From the IMG/VR virus record IMGVR_UViG_3300021560_000023, positions 1 through 51,194 of that record: a stretch of DNA of 51,194 nt. One strand, given 5' to 3'. The notes beneath the pieces are model-generated. The model was not told the DNA's origin. It did no database searches and worked only from the letters and a program-made list of their open reading frames with translations. Shown here in pieces: positions 416 to 11,864 of this stretch. Origin of the DNA: a virus. Taxonomy: Duplodnaviria; Caudoviricetes. Numbering within the stretch: the first letter of the stretch is position 1; every line of letters starts with the position of its first letter. A program made the translations under genes and the position numbers.

Positions 416-1123
416 TCACGTACGATGGAGCCTAGTAGCCGTCCGCGGGCCAGCCGGGGTGCGCAAGTCCTCCACCCACTCGCGGAACTCCGCCGCCAGT
501 TCCCAGGCCTGTATTCGCGGGTCGCCCTCGACCACCCACGACTCCATCCCGGGACCTCCGGCGTACGTGCGCAGGACCTCGCCAACGTACCCGTCCGCTC
601 CGCCGCCGTGACGTGACGGCCAGCCCTCGTCCGCGTGCAAAATGCGCGCCACCCGGAGTGCCATGTGACGGGTCGCGTCCACCCTGTGGTCGCCCCTCCC
701 CAGAGCCCGTCCCTTGCGCTTGGCGTGCGCCATGGGCCACAGCCCCCACTCCTTCAGCCGCTTGTCGGTCGCCCACCCCTTGGCATCTGACGGAGTCTGC
801 TCGCAGACGGTCACTCCCATGGCGTACTGCGCGTCAGGCGAGGACCGCCCGGTGAGCGACAGCCGCCCGTCGAGCCCCGCCTCACGCGGCACGAGCAGTG
901 CCTTGAACCCGGCCGCGACCTCGACGCCGGTGAGGTCCACCGTCACCTGGCGGAGGGCGAATGACTCCAACACCAACCAGATTCTGAACCCCTCCTCGAC
1001 GCCGTACGCCTTCCCAACCCTCTCGCCGCGCAGCCGCTGCTCGATGGTGGTGTCTGCCCAGAACAGACCTCGTGCCACGCCGGTCGCCTTCCCCGGGTCG
1101 ATGGCCATCACCGCGAACCTCAT
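416..1123 (-). CDS. RuvC-like Holliday junction resolvase, apparently internally rearranged
   Basis: AIDPGKATG, WLVLESF, QTPSDAK..ATDKRLK, HRVDATRH motifs; last gene of the replication module. Confidence 0.7.
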   Translation of the reverse strand: MRFAVMAIDPGKATGVARGLFWADTTIEQRLRGERVGKAYGVEEGFRIWLVLESFALRQVTVDLTGVEVAAGFKALLVPREAGLDGRLSLTGRSSPDAQYAMGVTVCEQTPSDAKGWATDKRLKEWGLWPMAHAKRKGRALGRGDHRVDATRHMALRVARILHADEGWPSRHGGGADGYVGEVLRTYAGGPGMESWVVEGDPRIQAWELAAEFREWVEDLRTPAGPRTATRLHRT

Positions 1124-1144
1124 CCAGCCTCCTCTCGTGTTTGG

Positions 1145-1360
1145 GTGCGCCCGGCTAGCTGAAGGGGTGGCGTGAGCGGGTGCGCCCTAGAACCCCTAGA
1201 GGGGTTCGGCGCACTCCCACCCACCCCCAGTGCGCCCGCCCACCGGGGCGCACCGGGGCGCACTGACCACATTCCCGCTGCTAATCCCATGTTTTCAGTG
1301 CGCCCCGTGGTAGTACATTGTCGAGCGGTTCGGGCCAAACTCCTGCCTCAGTGCGCCCCG
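1145..1360. repeat. Iteron-like GTGCGCC array, putative replication origin
   Basis: 8 copies in both orientations plus near-palindrome GAACCCCTAGAGGGGTTC (1190-1207), at the 3' end of the primase-helicase gene. Confidence 0.6.
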
Positions 1361-2935
1361 CCCAGTAAGTACAGCTAATCCATCCCGTACTCGCTCCCTC
1401 CGGCCACCCATCGCACGCTCGACCTTGGACTGGCTCATCCCGTCCTCGATGACCCCCAGGAGTTCGGCCAGGTACACCGGGTCATTCGCCTCCTGCTCCT
1501 TGCGCTGCTCCTTCTGTTCCTCACGAGCCTCCTCCCGTCGAGCCGCCTTCTCCCGCATGAAGTCCTCCGGCAGGTACTCATCCCCGGCTGCTCCCCGGGT
1601 GACGTCCCAGACCATCGAGGTCCCCAACGACAGCTTCTCCATGCGCATCGCCTTGAGTGGTCCGTACCGGTTCTTGTCGACGTGGAACAGCCCCGCCTCG
1701 CGGGACCCCATAGCCTCCAGCTTCAGCACTGCCTCGCTGAACATCTGTAGGTGTTTCGTTCCGCGAGCCTCGCCCACCGCGTTGGTGTGCTGTAGGACGA
1801 TCACGGTGATGTCGAGGACGAGGGCGAGCGACCTCATCCCCAGCGCAAAGTCCCGGGTGTCCTCCACGCCGTCCTTGTTGACCGTCCCGTACAACCCGGC
1901 GGAGTCCACGATCACGACCCGGACGCCGCCGTGTCGCAGGACCTCCAAGGCGAGCCGGGCGAGTCCGGCCGGGCTCGTGATGTCCCAAGTCGCCTGCGTG
2001 AAGTAGCAGGGAGCCGCCCCGTTGAGGTCCCCGCGGGAGCGGACGAGAGCCCCGTACACCGGTCCCAGCTGCTGAGTCCCCTCGCCCTCCAGCATCAGGA
2101 CGGAGCCCTTGTCCACCCGGTAGCCGTTCCAGTCGTGGCCCCGGGCGATGGCGTCCGCGATGTCCGACACCAGGATGGTTTTACCCACGCCCGGAGCCCC
2201 GTACATCACGGTGTAGCCGACCTCTGGAACCCAACCCTCGACCTGCCACCGCGGCGGAGGTTGGTTGAGGATGTCCTCGACCGTGAGCCACTCAATCCGC
2301 GGCTCGCCGCCTGCGAACATCTCCAGGACCTCCTCCAGCTGCTCGCGGAACTCGCCCGCCCCGGACAGGACCGACTCGACAGCCTCCCGCTCCTTGTAGC
2401 CGTCCTCCGCCTGCTCCGGGACCGGTGGCGGGTCCTCCCTCACGAGGTCCCTCCAGCCTAAGCCATTATCCAGGTGGTCACTGACGTCCTTCCCACGCGC
2501 TGGCCGCCAACACTCATAGGAGGCTCCGACCTCCCTCAGAGCCTCCATCGTCCAGTGAGCCCGCCGGGAGCCGTCCACGTCCCGGTCCCAGATGATCATC
2601 ACGGTCGCCCCGGCCAGCGGGCGGGCGAGTCCCGCGGGCCACTTGCCGTTCTGGGGAGCAGTCGTGGCAGGACCAAACCCCTCCCTCACGAGCCGGTCCG
2701 CGTCCTTCTCGCCCTCGACCAGCACGATGTCCAGCCCCTCACCGACTCCCGCCACGACCTCCGGGAGCCGGTACAGCACGTCAAGCTCAGAGCCGTACCC
2801 GGCGGACCAGCCCGACTCTGTGTAACACTCCCACGCGAACCCCTTGGGCTCAAACCTGATCTTGCGGCGGATCGGCTCGCCCTGGCGGGTCACGTAGTGG
2901 TACGTCGCAACCTCCCTCCGTTCAGCCCTTGCCAT
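1295..2935 (-). CDS. TOPRIM primase / AAA_25 (RepA-like) helicase
   Basis: VEGEKDAD, WDRDVDG, GKDVSD; Walker A GAPGVGKT, Walker B VVIVDS, DKNRYG. Confidence 0.9.
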   Translation of the reverse strand: MARAERREVATYHYVTRQGEPIRRKIRFEPKGFAWECYTESGWSAGYGSELDVLYRLPEVVAGVGEGLDIVLVEGEKDADRLVREGFGPATTAPQNGKWPAGLARPLAGATVMIIWDRDVDGSRRAHWTMEALREVGASYECWRPARGKDVSDHLDNGLGWRDLVREDPPPVPEQAEDGYKEREAVESVLSGAGEFREQLEEVLEMFAGGEPRIEWLTVEDILNQPPPRWQVEGWVPEVGYTVMYGAPGVGKTILVSDIADAIARGHDWNGYRVDKGSVLMLEGEGTQQLGPVYGALVRSRGDLNGAAPCYFTQATWDITSPAGLARLALEVLRHGGVRVVIVDSAGLYGTVNKDGVEDTRDFALGMRSLALVLDITVIVLQHTNAVGEARGTKHLQMFSEAVLKLEAMGSREAGLFHVDKNRYGPLKAMRMEKLSLGTSMVWDVTRGAAGDEYLPEDFMREKAARREEAREEQKEQRKEQEANDPVYLAELLGVIEDGMSQSKVERAMGGRRERVRDGLAVLTGRGALRQEFGPNRSTMYYHGAH

Positions 2936-3084: not shown

Positions 3085-3939
3085 CTAGCGCACCCACCCT
3101 GCTGTCGGGTCAGTCAGCCATTCTCGCGGGTCCACCTCATCGAATGCCCCGCGGTCCACCCGCTCGCGGATCGTACAGCCCCGGTCAAAGTCCGCCTGGA
3201 ACGGGCACCGGCCGTGCGCGTAGCAGACAGGGCGGAACAGGTTGGACTCCGCGATGAACCGGAACTGCCACTCAGTCGAGCGGTCCGGCGGCTCATACGC
3301 CGCGAGAGCAGACACGATCTGGGAGCCGACCAGCCGCCACTCAAACTGGGCCTGTGTACACAGCCGGTTCCCCAGGTGGTCCACGAGGTTGCGGAGGTTG
3401 GTCTTGTAGTTCAGCCGGGTGAGCGTGTCGTGCGGGAGGAGCCCGCGAGCCTCCTCCGCGGGGACGCCGTTGGCGATCAGCGACCGGTACGCCTCCCACG
3501 TGTTCTTGATGTGCGCGTTCCAGACCCGCCTCGCCTGCTTGTTCGCTCCCACGAGCGGACCCGGGCGAGCCGCGATGTCCTCCTTGACCGCGAACCGCAT
3601 TGACTCCTGAGCGTACACCGCCGTCCGCTGGCGGACCATCTGGTGGGTGAACGCACGTGTGACGTTCTCCACCATAAAGTGGAGGTCCACCGCCTCCAGG
3701 GGAGCCTTGAGGTGCGTCGCATTAGCTTGGTCCCACGCCCAACGCCGCTCCTCGTCCGTTAGCTCCATCAGGGACCGGATCACCCGACCCTGGTACATGA
3801 AGGCGAATGCCGCTATGGACCCCAGCGGGTCCGGCGTGGCGGAGAGCAGGGTCACCGTTGGCATCCCGTGTCCCACGACCGGCTCCGCCGGATACATCGC
3901 CTTGTCCACGTATGTGCTGACTTCCGAACCTTCCGTCAT
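3085..3939 (-). CDS. thyX: FAD-dependent thymidylate synthase ThyX-like (RQR variant); start 3939 or 3948
   Basis: HLKAPLE, TRAFTHQMVRQRTAVYAQESMRF, AEEARGLLP, RLCTQAQFEW. Confidence 0.85.
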   Translation of the reverse strand: MTEGSEVSTYVDKAMYPAEPVVGHGMPTVTLLSATPDPLGSIAAFAFMYQGRVIRSLMELTDEERRWAWDQANATHLKAPLEAVDLHFMVENVTRAFTHQMVRQRTAVYAQESMRFAVKEDIAARPGPLVGANKQARRVWNAHIKNTWEAYRSLIANGVPAEEARGLLPHDTLTRLNYKTNLRNLVDHLGNRLCTQAQFEWRLVGSQIVSALAAYEPPDRSTEWQFRFIAESNLFRPVCYAHGRCPFQADFDRGCTIRERVDRGAFDEVDPREWLTDPTAGWVR

Positions 3940-4249
3940 CTCTCTCACTCCTGTGCTGCGCCAGGTGACGCTCGATGGTGTCCAAGGTAGCTTCTGCCAT
4001 CAGTGCCCGCTCCCGCCAGTAGAGTGCGTCATGCGACTCCGTGGGATCGTTGAGCAACCAGCTGAGCAGGAGGACCGTGGCAGAGCCGATCCGTCCCGCC
4101 TCCCATCTATAGAACGTTGACCGCGACACTCCCGCCTGCTCCGCCGCCTCCTTTGGGTCGAGGTCCCGGGCCAGCCTCGCCTCGCGGACGAGTCGCCCGA
4201 TGAACCGCTTCTGGTCACTGCTCGCCTCTGCCCACTCGTACGGTCTCAT
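3722..4249 (-). CDS. XRE-family HTH regulator
   Basis: IGRLVREARLARDLDPKEAAEQAGVSRSTFYRWEAG; ATGA overlap with dnaE stop; 3' tail overlaps thyX. Confidence 0.75.
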   Translation of the reverse strand: MRPYEWAEASSDQKRFIGRLVREARLARDLDPKEAAEQAGVSRSTFYRWEAGRIGSATVLLLSWLLNDPTESHDALYWRERALMAEATLDTIERHLAQHRSERDDGRFGSQHIRGQGDVSGGAGRGTRDANGDPALRHAGPAGVHSGIRLHVPGSGDPVPDGANGRGAALGVGPS

Positions 4250-7200
4250 GGAGTGATCACCCACATCCGCCGGACGTTGAGCTTGCGTACAGCCGACCTC
4301 GCGGGTTTGGACGCCTCGACCAGGAGGAGGTCGGAGCCCGTGTTGAACTCCATGATGTGGTCCCGGTACATCGGGAACCGCCAGCGGTCCACCGTGATCA
4401 GCAGCTGGTCGGTGTCGTCCTCGCCCGTCAACAGCGCCCACTCCCTGAGATGGGCGTCCTTCACCTGCGCCGGGTCTAGCTCGACGCCTCTGGCCCGGTT
4501 CTGTTCAAAGATGTCCCGGATGTTGAGCTTGAGGAACGTCCCCAGCCAGACGCACTTCACTGCTCGACCCACCAGGCTCTCGTCCGCGAGGTCCACGGCC
4601 GTATGAGTCGGCTCCGGGAGCCCGTGGCCCTCCTTCAACCACTCCCTCGTGTTGGCAATGTTCCGGTCGAGCAGGAACGCGCCAAACGGGTCCTCGTCCT
4701 CCAGCCATGCCTTGATCTTCTCCGCCGTCTTGGGGCCAAACCCCTTCAGCTCAACGATCTGGTCCCACGAGGTCGGTTGTCGGTCCCTCGCCCACTGAGC
4801 GACCACCGCCGCCGTCTTGGGTCCGATCCCATTGATGGCCCGGAACCCTGCCCTGATCCCGCCGTGTCGCCCGACCGGGGACCAGCCCTCCTCGCTCTTG
4901 GCCAGCGAGGGACGCCGGACCTTGATCTGGTGCTTGTCCGCGTCCCGGAGGAGGTTGCGTGTCCGCTCCGGGTCGCTCGCCGCCTCTGTGAGGCTCGCCG
5001 CGTAGAACACGTTGGTGTGATACTGCTTGAACCACTGGGTGTAGTAGCTCAGCAGTGCGTACCCGGCGCAGTGGGCCGCGTTGAAGGCGTACGCACCGCT
5101 GGTGACCATGTTCCCCCAGATGCGGTCCGCGAGAACCCGTGGCATCACCCGCTCCGCTCCAGCCAGGAACTCCTCCCGCCTCGCCTGGAACAGCTGCTCG
5201 CCCTTCTTGAGGGCGATGATCTTGCGTATCTCCGCGACACCGGCCGGAGGGAACCCGCCGATGTCCCGGGCCACGCTGAGTATCTGCTCCTGGTACACCA
5301 TCTGAAACTGGGTCGGAGCCGTGATGGCATCGTACGCCGGGTGGACCTTCTCCGGAGCCCGGAGCCCCGCCTTGATCTCCGCGTACTCGCGGGCGGCTCC
5401 GTTGTGGAGCGGTCCCGGGCGACAGAGGGCGATACAGTCCATCAACTCGCTGAACCGCTCCGGCTGGATGCCCGCCGTGACGTACCGGGTCGCCCGCCCC
5501 TCAAACTGGAAGATGCCCGTGAGGTCGCCCGCCCTGAACGCCTCGTACACCCGCGGGTCCCCTAGCTCCAGCCCGTACAGGTCGTGGGTCGTCATCCCGA
5601 CCCGCTTACAGCAGTCCCACAGCATTGACATCGTGTTGAGCCCCAGGAAGTCCATCTTGACGAGCCCCTGTCGCTCCGCGTCCGGCTTGTCGAGGGCGAC
5701 CACCTGAACGATCTGGCCGGAGCCCTTGGGGACCTCCCGCTCAGCGACCGTGGTCACCGATGTGATGGGTTCATTGCTCAACACCAACCCAGCCGCGTGG
5801 ACTCCGAACCCCTTGATGTTGCCCTCCAGCCAGCCGCCCTTGGCGAGGTCCGGGTTGCGGTCCCAGATGGCTCTCGCCTGTGGGAACTGTTCGATGGTGT
5901 CCTCAATGGTGCTGCTCGCCCGGAGGTCCCCGCTCGACCGCTCAATGAGGAACTTCTTCAACTCCTCGACCTCCCACTTGGGGATGCGGAACACCCGGGC
6001 GATGTCGTCCAAGGAGTTGCGCCCCTTGAACTGGATGTAGGTCCCGATGTTGTTGACGCAGCCGGGTCCCATCAGGTCCTCATAGAACCGCCGGAGCAGC
6101 GGGCGAGCCTCGCTGGGGAAGTCGAGGTCAATGTCCGGCAGGTCCTCGCGGGTCACGTCGATGAACCGGTCAAAGGACAGGAGCCCCTCAAACTCCCGGC
6201 GGAGCGGGTTGACCTCCGTTATCCCCAGCAGCCACGCCGCAATCGACGCAGCAGCCGAACCACGAGCCGGACCGACAGGAATGCCAAGAGACTTGACGTG
6301 GCGCACACCAGCAGCGACCAACAGGAAGTAGTCCACAAAGTCCTTCCCCTCGATGAGGGACATCTCGTGGCGCAGCTGGGCGCTGTACGGCTCCCGCTCC
6401 TCCGGGTCCAGCCGGTGTAGCCCGCGTTCACGCCAGCCCTGCTTGAGCAGGGCACGCCAATGCCCTGTCGCTGAGCCCTCCCCGGGCGGGAGCGGGTACC
6501 GGACCATTGGCAGCCGCGGGAGGGTAGCTGTACACTCCTGGGCAATCTCCTCTGTTGACACGATGGCTTCAATGGCCTCCTCCTTACTCAGCCCGGTCGC
6601 CCTCAGACGCCGGTACACGGTGGCATCGTTCGGTGGTGGGCAGAGTGGAGCCGTGTAGCCCCACTCCCTCGCCTGCTCCTCCAGGGTGCGCTTCTCGCCC
6701 GGCCGGAGGTTGTGGAGAATCTTCTGAACCTCCTGCTCCTCCAACATCGTGTAGTGGCAGTCGAGGGTGGCCACGAGCTGTGAGCCGATAGCCCGGGCGA
6801 GCCGCCCCGCGAGAGCGTTGAACCGCCGCGTGACCTCCAACTCCGGGAACGCCTGAACCTCGATCAGGTAGTTGTCCCCGAACGTCTCGCGGAACAGCTG
6901 GGCTATCCGGAGCCCTCTCGCGTACGAGGCACGCTCCTGGGGTATCCCCTTCCCGCCGACCGTCGCACACGCGAGGAGGCTGCCCTGACAGCCGGACAAC
7001 ACAAGGAGCCCGGCTCGCCGCCGGACGAGTTCGTCCCAGGTGACCGTGGGCTCATAGTAGAAGTGTTGCCACGAGCCGGTCACCAGGGCGAGGAGGTTGG
7101 CATAGCCCTGCTGGTCCTTGGCGATCAGGGTGAGGTGGTGCTTGCGCTGCGTCTCCGTGTCCGGCCGTCTCCAGAACCGGCCGCTGGGCATGTAGACCTC

Positions 7201-8332: not shown

Positions 8333-8640
8333 CAGAGCCGCTCCATCCACGCCACGGCCAGAGCCGCGATCTGAGCCAACTCCTTCCGGAGCCCCTTGTC
8401 GGAGAAGTCACCCTCATCGACCGCCAGCCCGGTCCGGTTCAACGCTGCTCTCGCGACCTCGCCCATCTCCTCCATCAGGCACGCCGCCCGCTCGATGTCG
8501 GTCATCCCGTCATCGGAGAGGGTGTACTTGAAACGTCCGTCCGCCTTCAGAGCCAGCTGGCGCTTGCGCTCCGACCCGACGATGATGAGGACCCGCTCCA
8601 GCTTGGAGCCGACCTCCAGTTCAGGATCGTACAAGCTCAT
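8332..8640 (-). CDS. MazG-like NTP pyrophosphohydrolase
   Basis: LMEEMGEVARA...LRKELAQIAALAVAW. Confidence 0.8.
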   Translation of the reverse strand: MSLYDPELEVGSKLERVLIIVGSERKRQLALKADGRFKYTLSDDGMTDIERAACLMEEMGEVARAALNRTGLAVDEGDFSDKGLRKELAQIAALAVAWMERL

Positions 8641-9317
8641 CGTGTCCCTCCATACAGGTTGATCCCGGAGCCCGCTGTCCACTTGGCGGCCGGAGCAGTG
8701 AGCAGCCAGGACACAACCTCCGCGACCTCGACCGGCTGAAGGTGATCGAACATCCTCAGGTCCTTCCGCTGATAGACCTCCGCCTCACCCCTGCTCAGGT
8801 CCTTGGTCTCCATCAGCTGCTCGACCACCCGGGCTCCCATGGGCGTATCTGGAACGTGGTACGGGTGGACGATGTGGAAGAAGAAGATGGGCGTCAACTC
8901 CCAAGCTAGCTCGCGGACCGCCGCCGCGAGTCCCGCCTTGGCCGCGCAGTACGCCGCCCCGTTGGTCAGTGGGTGATCGTGGGCATACGAGCCCACTAGG
9001 ACAGCCGCTCCGCCCTTGGAGCCACGATCCCTGACGTATCCCCTGGCTGCCATGAGCGGGAGGAGCAGGGAGCCCCGGATCACCTCATGGATGTCGTCCT
9101 CGCTCGCCTGGTCAAAGGGAACCATCCGCGTGTGCCCCAGGGTACAGACCATCGCATCGTACTGCCCCAGGTCCGTCGAGGGGATGCGGTACACCCCGTC
9201 AGTATCCAGGCAGTCTGAGCTGTCCACGGTCCATCCTTCCCGGGTCAACACGCCGCGGATCGCTGACCCGATGTTCCACGGCTCCTTCATCGCTGCTCCC
9301 AGCACCATTGCCTTCAT
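8637..9317 (-). CDS. SDR-family oxidoreductase
   Basis: VLGA..NIGSAI, VLVGS, YCAAK (YxxxK), GSGINLYGG. Confidence 0.85.
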   Translation of the reverse strand: MKAMVLGAAMKEPWNIGSAIRGVLTREGWTVDSSDCLDTDGVYRIPSTDLGQYDAMVCTLGHTRMVPFDQASEDDIHEVIRGSLLLPLMAARGYVRDRGSKGGAAVLVGSYAHDHPLTNGAAYCAAKAGLAAAVRELAWELTPIFFFHIVHPYHVPDTPMGARVVEQLMETKDLSRGEAEVYQRKDLRMFDHLQPVEVAEVVSWLLTAPAAKWTAGSGINLYGGTR

Positions 9318-9954
9318 CGTAGCTCCTCATCAGTTCCATGATTGCGCTCGCCACCCCGGTGAGGGAGGCGAACTCCCATCCACTCCAACTCGCTGCCATG
9401 TTCCACTCCGACCGGCGGAGGATCGGTTGGCCCAAGTGTTCGATGCGCGCCTGGTCCAGGATCCAGGTCAGGTCATCGAGGACCGCCACGACCCGCCGCG
9501 GGTCTATCCGCCGGGCGAGTTCGCCCAGCTTGTTCTCCCCGAACAGCAACCCATCGAACTCGATGTTGTTGCGCCTCGCCCACTCCACGGAGTCCGGGTC
9601 AATCCGGTCATACCGGTTGTGAGGGCGGGTCGTGGTCAACCAGACTTCCGCTCCCGCCTCCCGGAGCAGCCGGGTGAGGTCGCTCGCTCCCGGGTAGGTG
9701 CCCATCGTCCGCTTCAGACCTCCCTGCCTGTACGCCAGCTTGATCGACCGGAACGTTGAGAGGTCGATGCCGAACGTCTGACACATCCAGTCCCGGAACC
9801 GCTCCCCGCCCTCGTACTCGACCCGCTTGGGCTGGTAGCCTAGCCAGCTGCTCGCGAACTCGATGAAGTGGGGGTGATACGGAGCCAGCGTCCCGTCGAT
9901 GTCGATGGCGACCACGGGCGGGACCGGCTCTGAGCAGCGTGAGCACAGCATCAT
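9199..9954 (-). CDS. HAD-family phosphatase (5'-nucleotidase-like)
   Basis: AIDIDGTL, LTTTRP, K, VLDD; N-terminal CxxC. Confidence 0.85.
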   Translation of the reverse strand: MMLCSRCSEPVPPVVAIDIDGTLAPYHPHFIEFASSWLGYQPKRVEYEGGERFRDWMCQTFGIDLSTFRSIKLAYRQGGLKRTMGTYPGASDLTRLLREAGAEVWLTTTRPHNRYDRIDPDSVEWARRNNIEFDGLLFGENKLGELARRIDPRRVVAVLDDLTWILDQARIEHLGQPILRRSEWNMAASWSGWEFASLTGVASAIMELMRSYDEGNGAGSSDEGAVEHRVSDPRRVDPGRMDRGQLRLPGY

Positions 9955-10712
9955 GTAACAGCCTCCGCCGCCTCCCTCGCCCGTTCAAACGCCTCGTGTA
10001 GCAGGATGCCTGGCTTCCACATTCCGTACCTTCCGTTGCGCAGTATCTCTGGGTGGCAGTCGCAGTCCGTCTGGACCACCTTGAACCCCTTGCGGACCTT
10101 CCCATTCACGGCTCCCGGCGGCTGGGCGTACTCCGTCACCCGGTGGCCCCAGAGGTCCTGAGCCCTGTACCAGGCGTCCTGCTCCCGGCCGTTGTACAAC
10201 ACGGAGTTCGTCTCGACCTCCGGCGGAGCCCCATCGACCAGGTAGATGTCCGTCTGTTCAAAGAAGTGGTCGCCATCGCACAGCGCCCACGCCGGAGCCG
10301 TGTTGATCACCAGCCGGTAGTCCTTCACCAGCCGCCGGGCTCCGTGGGCGGTCACCTTCCGCTTCTGGACCCGCTCCCCGTACAGCGCCCACAGCGCATC
10401 GTACGCCGGGGCGAGGTACCAGCCGCCCTGCTGCCCCACCTTGTACCGATCCCAGGACGTGGGCCGGACGTACCCGTACACCTTCTTGGAGTACGTCCGG
10501 CCGTCACCGACCTTCTTGAACAGCATGAGGGCATCAGGCAGGCGGTGAGTGATGTCCGGGATCGCCCCTTGAAGGGACACCCCCAGAGCCATGGGCGACT
10601 GCTCCGGCCGGTCGGAGTAGATGTCCACCCGGAGTCCCGCTCGCGTACACGCGTGCGCGGAGAGGAGTCCGGCCGGTCCACATCCGATCACTGCCACGTC
10701 CGCGTCAACCAT
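9951..10712 (-). CDS. FAD/NAD-binding oxidoreductase (UDP-galactopyranose mutase-like fold)
   Basis: VAVIGCGPAGL, VINTAP, C-terminal GRYGMW; RBS GGAGG. Confidence 0.8.
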   Translation of the reverse strand: MVDADVAVIGCGPAGLLSAHACTRAGLRVDIYSDRPEQSPMALGVSLQGAIPDITHRLPDALMLFKKVGDGRTYSKKVYGYVRPTSWDRYKVGQQGGWYLAPAYDALWALYGERVQKRKVTAHGARRLVKDYRLVINTAPAWALCDGDHFFEQTDIYLVDGAPPEVETNSVLYNGREQDAWYRAQDLWGHRVTEYAQPPGAVNGKVRKGFKVVQTDCDCHPEILRNGRYGMWKPGILLHEAFERAREAAEAVT

Positions 10713-10989
10713 AGTCCTCCGCCTGCTCGACATAGCCCAGGAACCTGTGTAGCTCATTCCGGGCGAGCCGGAGAGCCCTCGCGTACCGCCGCGGCTCGAC
10801 CTCCGCGTCACCGCTCCGGAACTCCTGGAGCAGTGCCTGGAACCGCGGCCCAGCACTGAACACCCACTCGACCTCCTCCTTGTTCGTGGCCGGGTCCTCG
10901 ATGACCTCCATGGTCATGTGACGCATCCCCTTCATCATCAGGTACGCCGCCAGCGGGAGGTCGCCTGTTCTGAACACTTCATCGTTCAT
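10705..10989 (-). CDS. DUF5659-like small protein
   Basis: FRTGDLPLAAYL motif. Confidence 0.6.
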   Translation of the reverse strand: MNDEVFRTGDLPLAAYLMMKGMRHMTMEVIEDPATNKEEVEWVFSAGPRFQALLQEFRSGDAEVEPRRYARALRLARNELHRFLGYVEQAEDYG

Positions 10990-11057: not shown

Positions 11058-11864
11058 CTAGAACGGCTCCCCGCTGTCATCCTTGCGCAGCCGCTGGACG
11101 AGGACCGCCCGGGCTCCGTTGGTCGGCAGTTCCCGCTCCTTGAGTTCCGCCTTCAACTCCGCGACCGACAGGTCATCGTAGTTGTCGCCGCCCTCCTCGT
11201 CCTGCTCCTCGTCCTCGCCCTCCTCCTCGTCATCGTCCTCCTCGTCCTCGTCCTCCTCCTCGTCCTCCGGCATCGCCTCGACGATGGCCGTCCGGATGTC
11301 GTCGTCAGACATGGACTTCTTGACCGTGACGTCCAACTCCTCGTCCTTGATGAACTTCTTCAGGCCGGAGCGGTCGAGGCTGTCGAGGTCCACGGCGTCC
11401 TCGTCCTCCTCCTCGTCCGCCTCTGCCTCCTCCGCCTCCTCCGGCTCCGCCTCGTCCGCCTGCTCGACCTTCATGAGCTTGGCGATCCGCGGCCGGTAGT
11501 CCCCATCCTGGTCGGTGTCGGACTTGAGCCGCCCCAACACCTTCATCCCCTCGACCTTGTCCGTGTCGAATGAGCCCTTGAGCGGGAGCCCTAGCGCGGT
11601 GAAGAACTCCTTGGTGCGCGCCTGGACGAATGGGGAGTCATGCTCCAGCAGCGGGTAGTGCCAAATGGGCGCGTACTCCTCCTTGAGCCGCTCGCCCTGA
11701 GCGTTGTGGGTGGGGCGGAACCGGACCTCAAGCATGGCGTTGCCATTGCTGGACGGCTTGGGACCGTCGATGTCCTCGACCGTCAGGATGTACGTCCCGA
11801 CCGGAGCGTGGGCATCGCTCTGCGCATCTGCGAACTGCGACACATCGTACTTGACCTTGGGCAT
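11058..11864 (-). CDS. DUF669-like ssDNA-binding protein with acidic linkers and C-terminal SAP domain
   Basis: PVGTY..SSNGNAML; YDDLSVAELKAELKERELPTNGARAVLVQRL; ends in PF; follows the AAA_24 ATPase. Confidence 0.75.
   Translation of the reverse strand: MPKVKYDVSQFADAQSDAHAPVGTYILTVEDIDGPKPSSNGNAMLEVRFRPTHNAQGERLKEEYAPIWHYPLLEHDSPFVQARTKEFFTALGLPLKGSFDTDKVEGMKVLGRLKSDTDQDGDYRPRIAKLMKVEQADEAEPEEAEEAEADEEEDEDAVDLDSLDRSGLKKFIKDEELDVTVKKSMSDDDIRTAIVEAMPEDEEEDEDEEDDDEEEGEDEEQDEEGGDNYDDLSVAELKAELKERELPTNGARAVLVQRLRKDDSGEPF

Follow-up and report, generated by a model that had tools for sequence, protein, structure and literature searches.

Is the chain of a phage resolvase out of order, and if it is, how did that order arise and how would such a protein fold? 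The question is raised by an open reading frame (ORF) of 235 amino acids located at positions 416–1123 (minus strand) of the IMG/VR virus record IMGVR_UViG_3300021560_000023. The window, i.e., the whole stretch of DNA analysed here, comprises positions 1–51,194 of this record and represents a complete virus genome of 51,194 bp with direct terminal repeats (repeat length, 123 bp) and 66.3% G+C. The protein encoded by the ORF matches phrog_1981, a family annotated as function unknown, over residues 3–176 (E 6e-14). A first-pass annotation of this DNA had described the gene as scrambled, with a 108-bp internal block relocated in frame via short repeats, and had left three options, namely a natural non-circular permutation, a reversible switch, or an assembly artefact. 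The scrambling relative to the family is borne out by our analysis, and the first of these options is the one supported by the evidence. It is probable that the ORF specifies a functional actinophage 'RuvC-like resolvase' (family phrog_1981) with a non-circularly permuted chain.

Two chain orders in one protein family

A survey of 5.8 billion protein clusters revealed nine homologues of the window protein. Five of them (59–86% identical) share its order; the remaining four (34–40% identical) carry a clearly homologous block (ETWVVEGDYRVQSWELAAEF) between the Asp and Glu motifs, opposite a gap in the window protein. The approximately 35–42 residues that normally lie between these motifs, as in 152 of 158 family sequences, are placed after the last catalytic helix in the window protein. 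The spacing between Asp9 and Glu53 is indeed 44 residues, as previously noted, versus 77–78 residues in the sister clade. The canonical order may be described as A (strand 1 with the Asp, followed by strand 2), B (strand 3 and helix 1), and C (from the Glu-bearing strand 4 to the His-x-x-Asp helix). Here, the chain runs A, C, a flexible Gly-rich tether of 9–19 residues, B, and a short disordered tail.

The window protein was recognized by a profile hidden Markov model (HMM) built exclusively from 99 canonical members (148.0 bits), in three pieces: profile positions 7–43 on residues 2–36 (30.2 bits); 78–169 on residues 45–164 (101.1 bits); and 35–72 on residues 184–222 (17.3 bits). The family's colinear succession of strands 1, 2 and 3, helix 1, and strand 4 is thus not that of the window protein, in which profile positions 35–72 follow positions 78–169. 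Non-colinear matching of this kind was obtained for all six permuted proteins, in three pieces each, save for the N-terminally truncated P0005, which gives two. Once the order is swapped in frame, the window protein yields one colinear match (profile positions 7–169) of 168.6 bits compared with the 148.0 bits as given. A sister-clade profile made from six sequences placed its positions 35–65 on residues 190–220 (32.9 bits). The real score (36.4 and 21.2 bits) was approached by none of 2000 shuffles of residues 165–235, whose maxima were 5.8 and 4.7. Two further signals were not used as evidence: a double match to profile positions 35–43, which hinted at a partial duplication and was gone with the sister-clade profile, and a low-gap-penalty alignment of the tether to strands 1–2, which was judged to be an over-extension.

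The same picture emerged from pairwise comparison. BLASTP against the canonical gene of a related phage (L096) gave two non-colinear matches, residues 3–162 to 2–199 (E 8e-23) and residues 193–220 to 38–65 (E 1e-7). Six-frame searches of three related genomes revealed the three pieces in one open frame in two of them and one colinear match in L096; no second copy of the gene was found in these three genomes, which were searched whole. Block B of the window protein is therefore homologous to canonical B, is absent from the canonical site, and occurs a single time, at the C-terminus. The 36-residue block (residues 187–222) delimited in the first-pass annotation is homologous to the stretch normally situated between Asp and Glu, its boundaries lie within 0–8 residues of the homology-defined ones, and the unscrambled order proposed there is exactly that of the canonical homologues. 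The arrangement is A-C-B versus A-B-C with A fixed N-terminally, which is not obtainable by joining the ends and recutting, and it is therefore a non-circular permutation. The scramble is far beyond chance at the protein level, while the short DNA repeats are not. There is very little doubt that a permutation exists in these sequences and that it is fixed and under selection.

A profile search of 1.84 billion representatives returned 320 proteins at E ≤ 0.001, and the best 150 of these 320 were inspected. The final census comprised 158 sequences (157 database proteins and that of the window), of which 6 were non-colinear and 152 colinear; 99 of the latter had been used to build the profile. 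Two copies of the block were found in none of the 158 sequences. A word search with the block alone, performed against the 5.8 billion clusters, retrieved only the same five permuted clusters, which hold 12 member sequences. No prophage copies were found in species-representative genomes.

In a maximum-likelihood tree of 57 sequences, for which the root was not inferred, the permuted proteins formed one clade (bootstrap/Shimodaira–Hasegawa-like approximate likelihood ratio test, 100/99). This clade joins the canonical 'GPGME' clade (P0006, P0007, P0008, P0010, and P0012) with support of 96/83, a grouping seen in 92% of bootstrap trees. Chain order accounts for one change on this tree. A single derived rearrangement would thus be the parsimonious explanation, since every other lineage is canonical. 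The moved block shares 76% identity with that of P0006 (19 of 25 residues), 64% with P0007, and about 60% with P0011, P0014, and P0009; the best whole-protein alignment, by comparison, reaches 38%. These block identities agree with the tree of the core, which indicates that the block moved within the lineage and was not acquired from a distant relative.

Selection was assessed in the four permuted genes with available DNA, i.e., those of the window, L001, L002, and L004, between which synonymous divergence (dS) is 0.73–1.15. The ratio of nonsynonymous to synonymous divergence (dN/dS) was 0.12–0.20 for the whole gene, 0.06–0.13 for residues 177–221, and 0.04–0.11 for residues 188–221 of the block. 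Within the gene, constraint is strongest in the relocated block. No consistent constraint was seen in the tether (residues 166–176; dN/dS 0.16–0.94 in four computable pairs, dS saturated in the other two) or in the tail (residues 222–235; 0.37–3.05 in three computable pairs, dS saturated in the other three). The conserved block has a constant length of 42 residues (180–221) in all six permuted proteins.

Short repeats, assembly, and the route to the permuted order

The first-pass annotation had read the gene as the footprint of a 108-bp circle that was excised between CGTACG repeats and reinserted at TGCGCAC, with repeats that may still drive a reversible switch. The repeats are there, namely CGTACG at 1003–1008, the composite TGCGCACGTACG at 562–573, and TGCGCAC at 459–465. 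The proposed exchange of B and C through them stays in frame, creates no stop codon, and restores the colinear match; it involves stretches of 429 and 96 nt, the latter adding up to 108 bp with the 12-nt composite repeat. Also, two of the three coding-strand TGCGCAC sites in the genome are the two in question, and both repeat pairs became adjacent in the homology-defined junction zones in only 0.58% of 5000 codon shuffles. However, the same zone-restricted configuration arose in 6.3% of 5000 trials when the protein was kept and codons were redrawn. The difference between 0.58% and 6.3% shows that the coincidence is mostly one of amino acids (Ala-Tyr-Gly and Thr-Tyr-Ala, with Leu-Arg-Thr present twice). 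Irrespective of position, the gene contains 14 such configurations, each defined by adjacent copies of a 6-mer and a 7-mer that recur upstream and downstream of them, respectively; codon shuffles contain 7.1 on average, with at least one in 99% of 2000 shuffles and one in frame in 70%. The palindrome CGTACG is frequent throughout the genome (39 sites versus 9.7 in dinucleotide shuffles, a fourfold excess), with a third copy in the gene at 419–424. Its excess probably stems from codon strings of the type NCG-TAC-GNN. TGCGCAC is not over-represented genome-wide (8 sites versus 9.4 expected).

Comparison with relatives speaks against the circle as well. The TGCGCAC pair occurs in one and the CGTACG pair in two of the four permuted genes with DNA. 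L004 encodes a single Leu-Arg-Thr at the upstream junction of the block, in other codons and without the repeat word, and Thr222 is found only in the lineage of the window, its counterparts being Ala, Ala, Ser, Arg, and Gly. The deepest permuted lineage, P0282, possesses neither the Tyr nor the Arg-Thr that would be needed, so that neither pair can be encoded there. The left repeat is situated 4–8 residues inside the conserved block. The permutation is older than the split of the five clusters, and at a dS of 0.73–1.15 synonymous sites are near saturation, so that an ancestral repeat of 6–7 nt would not have survived. No match named as integrase or site-specific recombinase was detected among the 55 ORFs scanned. 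The repeats are not supported as footprints of the event and appear to stem from codon usage and from a Leu-Arg-Thr repeat specific to the lineage; we consider the circle very unlikely.

The repeats could, in principle, also have misled an assembler. If the true gene were canonical, it could have been mis-joined at the short repeats that occupy the junctions, and the genome is a metagenome assembly. Repeats of 6–7 nt are, however, far below the word size of assemblers. The permuted order is identical in the independent assemblies L001, L002, and L004, which argues against misassembly, and it recurs in five protein clusters from several sources at 59–86% identity. Logan contigs from two other sequencing runs, X2 and X3 (soil, other studies), cover positions 200–1007 and 200–668 of the window with zero differences and bridge two of the three junctions (459–465 and 562–573). 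The probability of an artefact is, in our view, negligible. A reversible switch is not supported either, as all relatives keep the identical order and no alternative joint was present in the contigs of four runs, although contigs cannot show rare variants. The test set in the first-pass annotation, which would have dropped the scramble if homologues were colinear with the order as given, thus had a split outcome: five clusters do share that order, which speaks against artefact and switch only, and the scramble relative to the family stands.

The contigs of X2 and X3 end near the CGTACG site, at 984–1007 and 992, which might be counted in favour of the circle. Their depth is 3–6 and the ends probably reflect fragmentation; neither these ends nor the uncovered parts in runs X3 and X4 were taken as evidence of anything.

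How, then, did the permuted order arise? The rearrangement would have occurred once, in situ. Permutations are explained mainly by two models, duplication with subsequent loss and fission with subsequent fusion (Bliven and Prlic, 2012, PMC3320104). In the former, a segment including B would have been duplicated to the 3' end of the gene, with subsequent in-frame loss of the original B, and the DNA traces of the event would since have been erased by near-saturated synonymous change. We give this route about an even chance.

The alternative, fission and fusion, assumes that the block once was, or still is, a separate small protein starting at Met193 that complemented a core lacking the block and was later fused to it, the former spacer becoming the tether. 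Indeed, an in-frame GGAGG followed after 7 nt by ATG stands exactly ahead of the strand of the block and could open a peptide of 43 residues, and the variable, unconstrained tether resembles a former spacer. The GGA codon of Gly189 is kept in three of the four genes, while GGA makes up 15.4% of Gly codons and begins 15 of 112 Gly-Gly pairs. Yet L004 has GGTGG at this place, and the 21 genes examined contain 11 such in-frame internal sites, or 0.25 for a gene of this size. Residues 180–192, which precede Met193, show conservation at the protein level and can be aligned to the canonical stretch ahead of strand 3, and no split form was found among the proteins of 129–412 residues searched. Fission and fusion, although it is one of the two main models, is for these reasons an unlikely origin here.

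Family identity, active-site residues, and proposed docking of the block

The pattern of Asp in strand 1, Glu in strand 4, and His-x-x-Asp-x-x-x-His in the last helix is kept in the family (Asp in 152, Glu in 157, His in 152, Asp in 145, and His in 149 of 158 sequences), and the corresponding Asp9, Glu53, His146, Asp149, and His153 are all intact in the window protein. The canonical member P0011 matches 21 actinophage records, which their depositors named RuvC-like resolvase (18), resolvase (2), or hypothetical protein (1). The window protein itself had no match at E 1e-5 among 50,697 records of cultured phages. Sub-threshold Pfam matches over the first-strand motif were obtained for DUF460 (11 of 99 plus 4 of 50 relatives; best E 8.2e-5) and Tex_YqgF (2 of 99 plus 1 of 50). 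Majorek et al. (2014, PMC3985635) assign both families to the resolvase clade of the RNase H-like superfamily. ESM Atlas feature matches of 0.85–0.93 pointed to viral clusters, one of them automatically named putative RuvC-like resolvase, and serve as leads only. The label 'RuvC-like' thus rests on motifs and on depositors' annotations.

In the RNase H-like fold, the core sheet has the strand order 3-2-1-4-5, which puts strands 3 and 5 on its edges; helix 1 packs against one face (Majorek et al., 2014, PMC3985635). From its position and sequence pattern, we infer that the moved block comprises strand 3 (ESWVVEG) and helix 1 (PRIQAWELAAEFREWVEDLR). The tethered B would fold back on the core and supply the edge strand and the packing helix, so that the fold and the junction-cutting site would be kept. 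Since strand 3 is an edge strand, its delivery from the C-terminus would be topologically easy and pose no threading problem. The extreme conservation of the block fits an unchanged structural role. Docking that preserves the fold, be it in cis or in trans, is probable.

The permutation may be real and the tethered block nevertheless not complement its own core. It could be inserted in the dimer partner, making a domain-swapped obligate dimer, or represent an appended copy with a new role in binding DNA or a partner. RuvC-type resolvases act as dimers, the tether is long (9–19 residues), flexible, and unconstrained, and compact canonical members manage with 46–52 residues between Asp and Glu. 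There is also precedent for swapping: Steczkiewicz et al. (2012, PMC3424549) list T7 endonuclease I among domain-swapped nucleases. On the other hand, the positions conserved in canonical blocks are kept here, with 19 of 25 residues shared with P0006, the block is under the strongest constraint in the gene, and the remnant at the N-terminal site is poorly conserved in the deepest lineage, P0282. We regard a block that does not complement its own core as rather improbable. Similarly low is the chance that an RNase H-like core is assembled here from two non-adjacent chain parts that possibly belong to two molecules, by insertion in the partner or by means of a separate 43-residue peptide. If this were true, the active enzyme would be an obligately intertwined or two-piece RuvC-like nuclease.

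Several observations weigh against a RuvC-like nuclease with B docked in its own core. Docking of B in cis is a prediction from sequence, and the members are all metagenomic. Five distant canonical members fit strand 3 and helix 1 in an Asp–Glu spacing of 46–52 residues; if such spacing suffices elsewhere, the 26 residues at the N-terminal site of the window protein could form a minimal element, and B could have another role. No duplication intermediate was found among the family sequences or in the word search with the block. The junction at 1003–1008 of the exact genome is bridged only by a run that is possibly its source. The relationship to RuvC is also weak by profile methods. Pfam (E up to 1) and NCBIfam contain no family for the window protein, and PF02075 matched nothing in the genome, at E up to 10, and none of the 99 plus 50 relatives. 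No solved RuvC-type structure in the PDB was matched by protein sequence, and a profile search of the PDB gave a single weak match, to an unrelated fusion protein (E 0.0099). Alignment of the canonical family with RuvC by hhalign yielded a probability of 5–9%, over the first-strand motif only and with shallow templates (effective number of sequences, 1.5–2.4). These templates were E. coli RuvC alone, 24 close RuvCs, and 79 gammaproteobacterial RuvCs, gathered as proteins at least 84% identical and genome loci at least 60% identical. With these points taken into account, a working, permuted resolvase with a preserved fold is still our preferred reading.

Gene setting and comparison with known systems

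The features of the resolvase gene are listed in Table 1.

Table 1. Coordinates of the putative permuted RuvC-like resolvase gene and of elements within and around it
Feature	Positions	Strand	Basis or remark
Whole gene, putative permuted RuvC-like resolvase, 235 aa	416..1123	−	ORF list; phrog_1981 match; three-piece match to canonical-only profile
Ribosome-binding site GGAGG, 4 nt, ATG start	1121..1132	−	Sequence and pattern scan
Core piece 1, residues 2–36: strand 1 with Asp9 (IDPG), strand 2 (GVARGLF), short helix-like stretch	1016..1120	−	HMM positions 7–43
N-terminal junction zone, residues 37–44, about 33 sister-clade residues missing; contains CGTACG	992..1015	−	HMM positions 44–77 unmatched
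Core piece 2, residues 45–164: Glu53 strand, mid-fold, last helix with His146, Asp149, His153	632..991	−	HMM positions 78–169
Gly-rich tether, residues 165–179, variable in length and sequence	587..631	−	9–19 residues in six permuted proteins
Relocated block, residues 180–221 (VGEVLRTYAGGPGM-ESWVVEG-DPRIQAWELAAEFREWVEDLR), presumed strand 3 and helix 1	461..586	−	HMM, identity, dN/dS
Unconstrained tail, residues 222–235, and stop codon	416..460	−	Tails of 8–25 residues, no conservation
Internal GGAGG, 7 nt, ATG (Met193), in frame, directly ahead of the strand of the block	545..559	−	Pattern scan
Pointer 1, CGTACG, codons of Ala39-Tyr40-Gly41	1003..1008		Common genome word
Composite pointer TGCGCACGTACG, Leu184-Arg-Thr-Tyr187-Ala	562..573	−	Inside the conserved block, not at its edge
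Pointer 2, TGCGCAC, Leu220-Arg-Thr222	459..465	−	Thr222 lineage-specific

Structural genes recognized by PHROG matches encode tail sheath, tube, baseplate, tape measure, capsid, portal, terminase, and endolysin proteins. The replication and recombination module includes, also by PHROG matches, genes for DNA polymerase, helicase, exonuclease, a Sak4-like annealing protein, thymidylate synthase, and a primase/helicase; the resolvase ORF is its final gene. Because the best cultured relatives of the capsid protein belong to Gordonia, Mycobacterium, and Arthrobacter phages (identity of at most 47.5%), we infer that the window represents an uncultured actinophage. Nearly all long ORFs of the window (1–51194) are located on the minus strand. 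No other resolvase-named family was detected in the 55 window ORFs scanned, PADLOC gave no match on 14 proteins, and neither a tRNA gene nor an Rfam family at gathering score was found in the whole 51,194-bp genome.

In both canonical L096 and permuted L001, the resolvase gene is preceded by thymidylate synthase and then by a primase-type gene, as in the window. The primase-type genes of L096 (766–2652) and the window (1295–2935) are unrelated (best BLASTP E 0.024), while the C-termini of the flanking thymidylate synthases are alike in the two phages; the primase slot represents a mosaic replacement in a conserved position.

The word GGGCGCAC, the core of CAGTGCGCCCCG, occurs in nine copies in the genome, seven of which lie in both orientations within 214 bp at 1145–1358. 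This cluster covers the 3' end of the primase/helicase gene and the spacer ahead of the resolvase gene. Relatives carry different repeats of their own at the same place, namely CGGACGGTCCCGGACG in three copies plus inverted pairs (L002), GGGCGGGGTTG in four copies (L096), and a 19-mer in two copies (L001). The cluster could be an iteron- or operator-like element. As RNA, the region 1110–1370 (minus strand) is predicted to form a series of stable hairpins (−135.2 kcal/mol; z −3.64), and none of 200 shuffles folds equally well. No sigma-70-like promoter or intrinsic terminator was found in positions 1–1500.

Three genes are unusual cargo for the replication module: one of the short-chain dehydrogenase/FabG-like type (Pfam adh_short_C2, E 1.2e-11), its neighbour, whose product has a weak FAD-binding N-terminus, and one that resembles polynucleotide kinase genes (8637–9317, 9951–10856, and 9199–9954, all on the minus strand). 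A protein with a C-terminal SAP DNA-binding domain adjoins the Sak4-like annealing protein, and an HTH_31 protein is encoded between the thymidylate synthase and polymerase genes (11058–11864 and 3722–4441, both on the minus strand).

Non-circular domain permutations have been described as rare (Zhang et al., 2013, PMC3863775; Eckert et al., 2023, PMC10085705). Among the 3,336 structures covered by an early screen, a single possible case of a natural non-cyclic permutation came to light (Dundas et al., 2007, PMC2096629). The limited collection of literature searched contained no description of a permuted RuvC or RNase H-like fold and no instance of the phrase 'Permuted RuvC'; the string 'permut' was absent from the 2014 superfamily survey. 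Going by these searches, no non-circular permutation that can be traced by sequence has been reported in the RNase H-like superfamily, and even the form docked in cis would be the first of its kind. Such permutations are usually recognized only from structures without sequence resemblance, and how they arise is guesswork. In this family both orders occur in sister clades with a block 76% identical, which makes the event recent enough to be traced, and their survival in the same gene slot of related soil phages makes the permutation directly testable. Among the questions it opens are how well the core tolerates an edge strand and helix 1 delivered from the C-terminus, whether the natural and the swapped-back order fold and cut equally well, and by which route the change occurred. 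The answers would bear on the engineering of split or permuted RuvC-type nuclease domains. The gene is also a warning for annotation, as profile searches present it as fragments or as a family of unknown function.

The closest known systems are the canonical actinophage RuvC-like resolvases, such as those of Streptomyces phage phiRKBJ001, Gordonia phage Ennea, and Mycobacterium phage MrMiyagi. They belong to the same family, share the Asp, Glu, and His-x-x-Asp residues, and in a related phage (L096) occupy the same gene neighbourhood; in the window protein, however, the block of strand 3 and helix 1 stands after the last helix and not before the Glu strand. With E. coli RuvC and PF02075, the window protein shares an alignable first-strand motif (hydrophobic residues, Asp-Pro-Gly, then Thr-Gly) and a set of four acidic and His residues that falls in the same order of elements. 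There is no significant sequence match between them, and RuvC is colinear whereas the window protein is permuted.

Scrambled genes of ciliates also consist of out-of-order segments flanked by short direct repeats, and these pointers are used in each generation to unscramble the DNA. In the phage gene, by contrast, the repeats are not conserved, and the scrambled order itself is the selected coding form.

Other permuted proteins provide parallels. In the Hef endonuclease, a member of the PD-(D/E)XK group, the first core helix likewise comes from the C-terminal region, but the permutation is circular and the fold is different (Steczkiewicz et al., 2012, PMC3424549). Permuted DNA methyltransferases have likewise been reordered within a domain while keeping their function, and duplication followed by loss is the favoured route; they are mostly circular permutations with documented intermediates, of which none was found here (Bliven and Prlic, 2012, PMC3320104; Eckert et al., 2023, PMC10085705). 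The best counterpart in chain order is the HK97-like major capsid protein of Bordetella phage BPP-1, which also changed from A-B-C to A-C-B with the N-terminal element fixed (Zhang et al., 2013, PMC3863775). That protein has a different fold and is known from a solved structure, while the present one is known from sequence. According to the same report, the two capsid topologies share no recognizable sequence similarity and their origin is obscure, whereas the two resolvase orders occur in sister clades and are linked by a block that is 76% identical.

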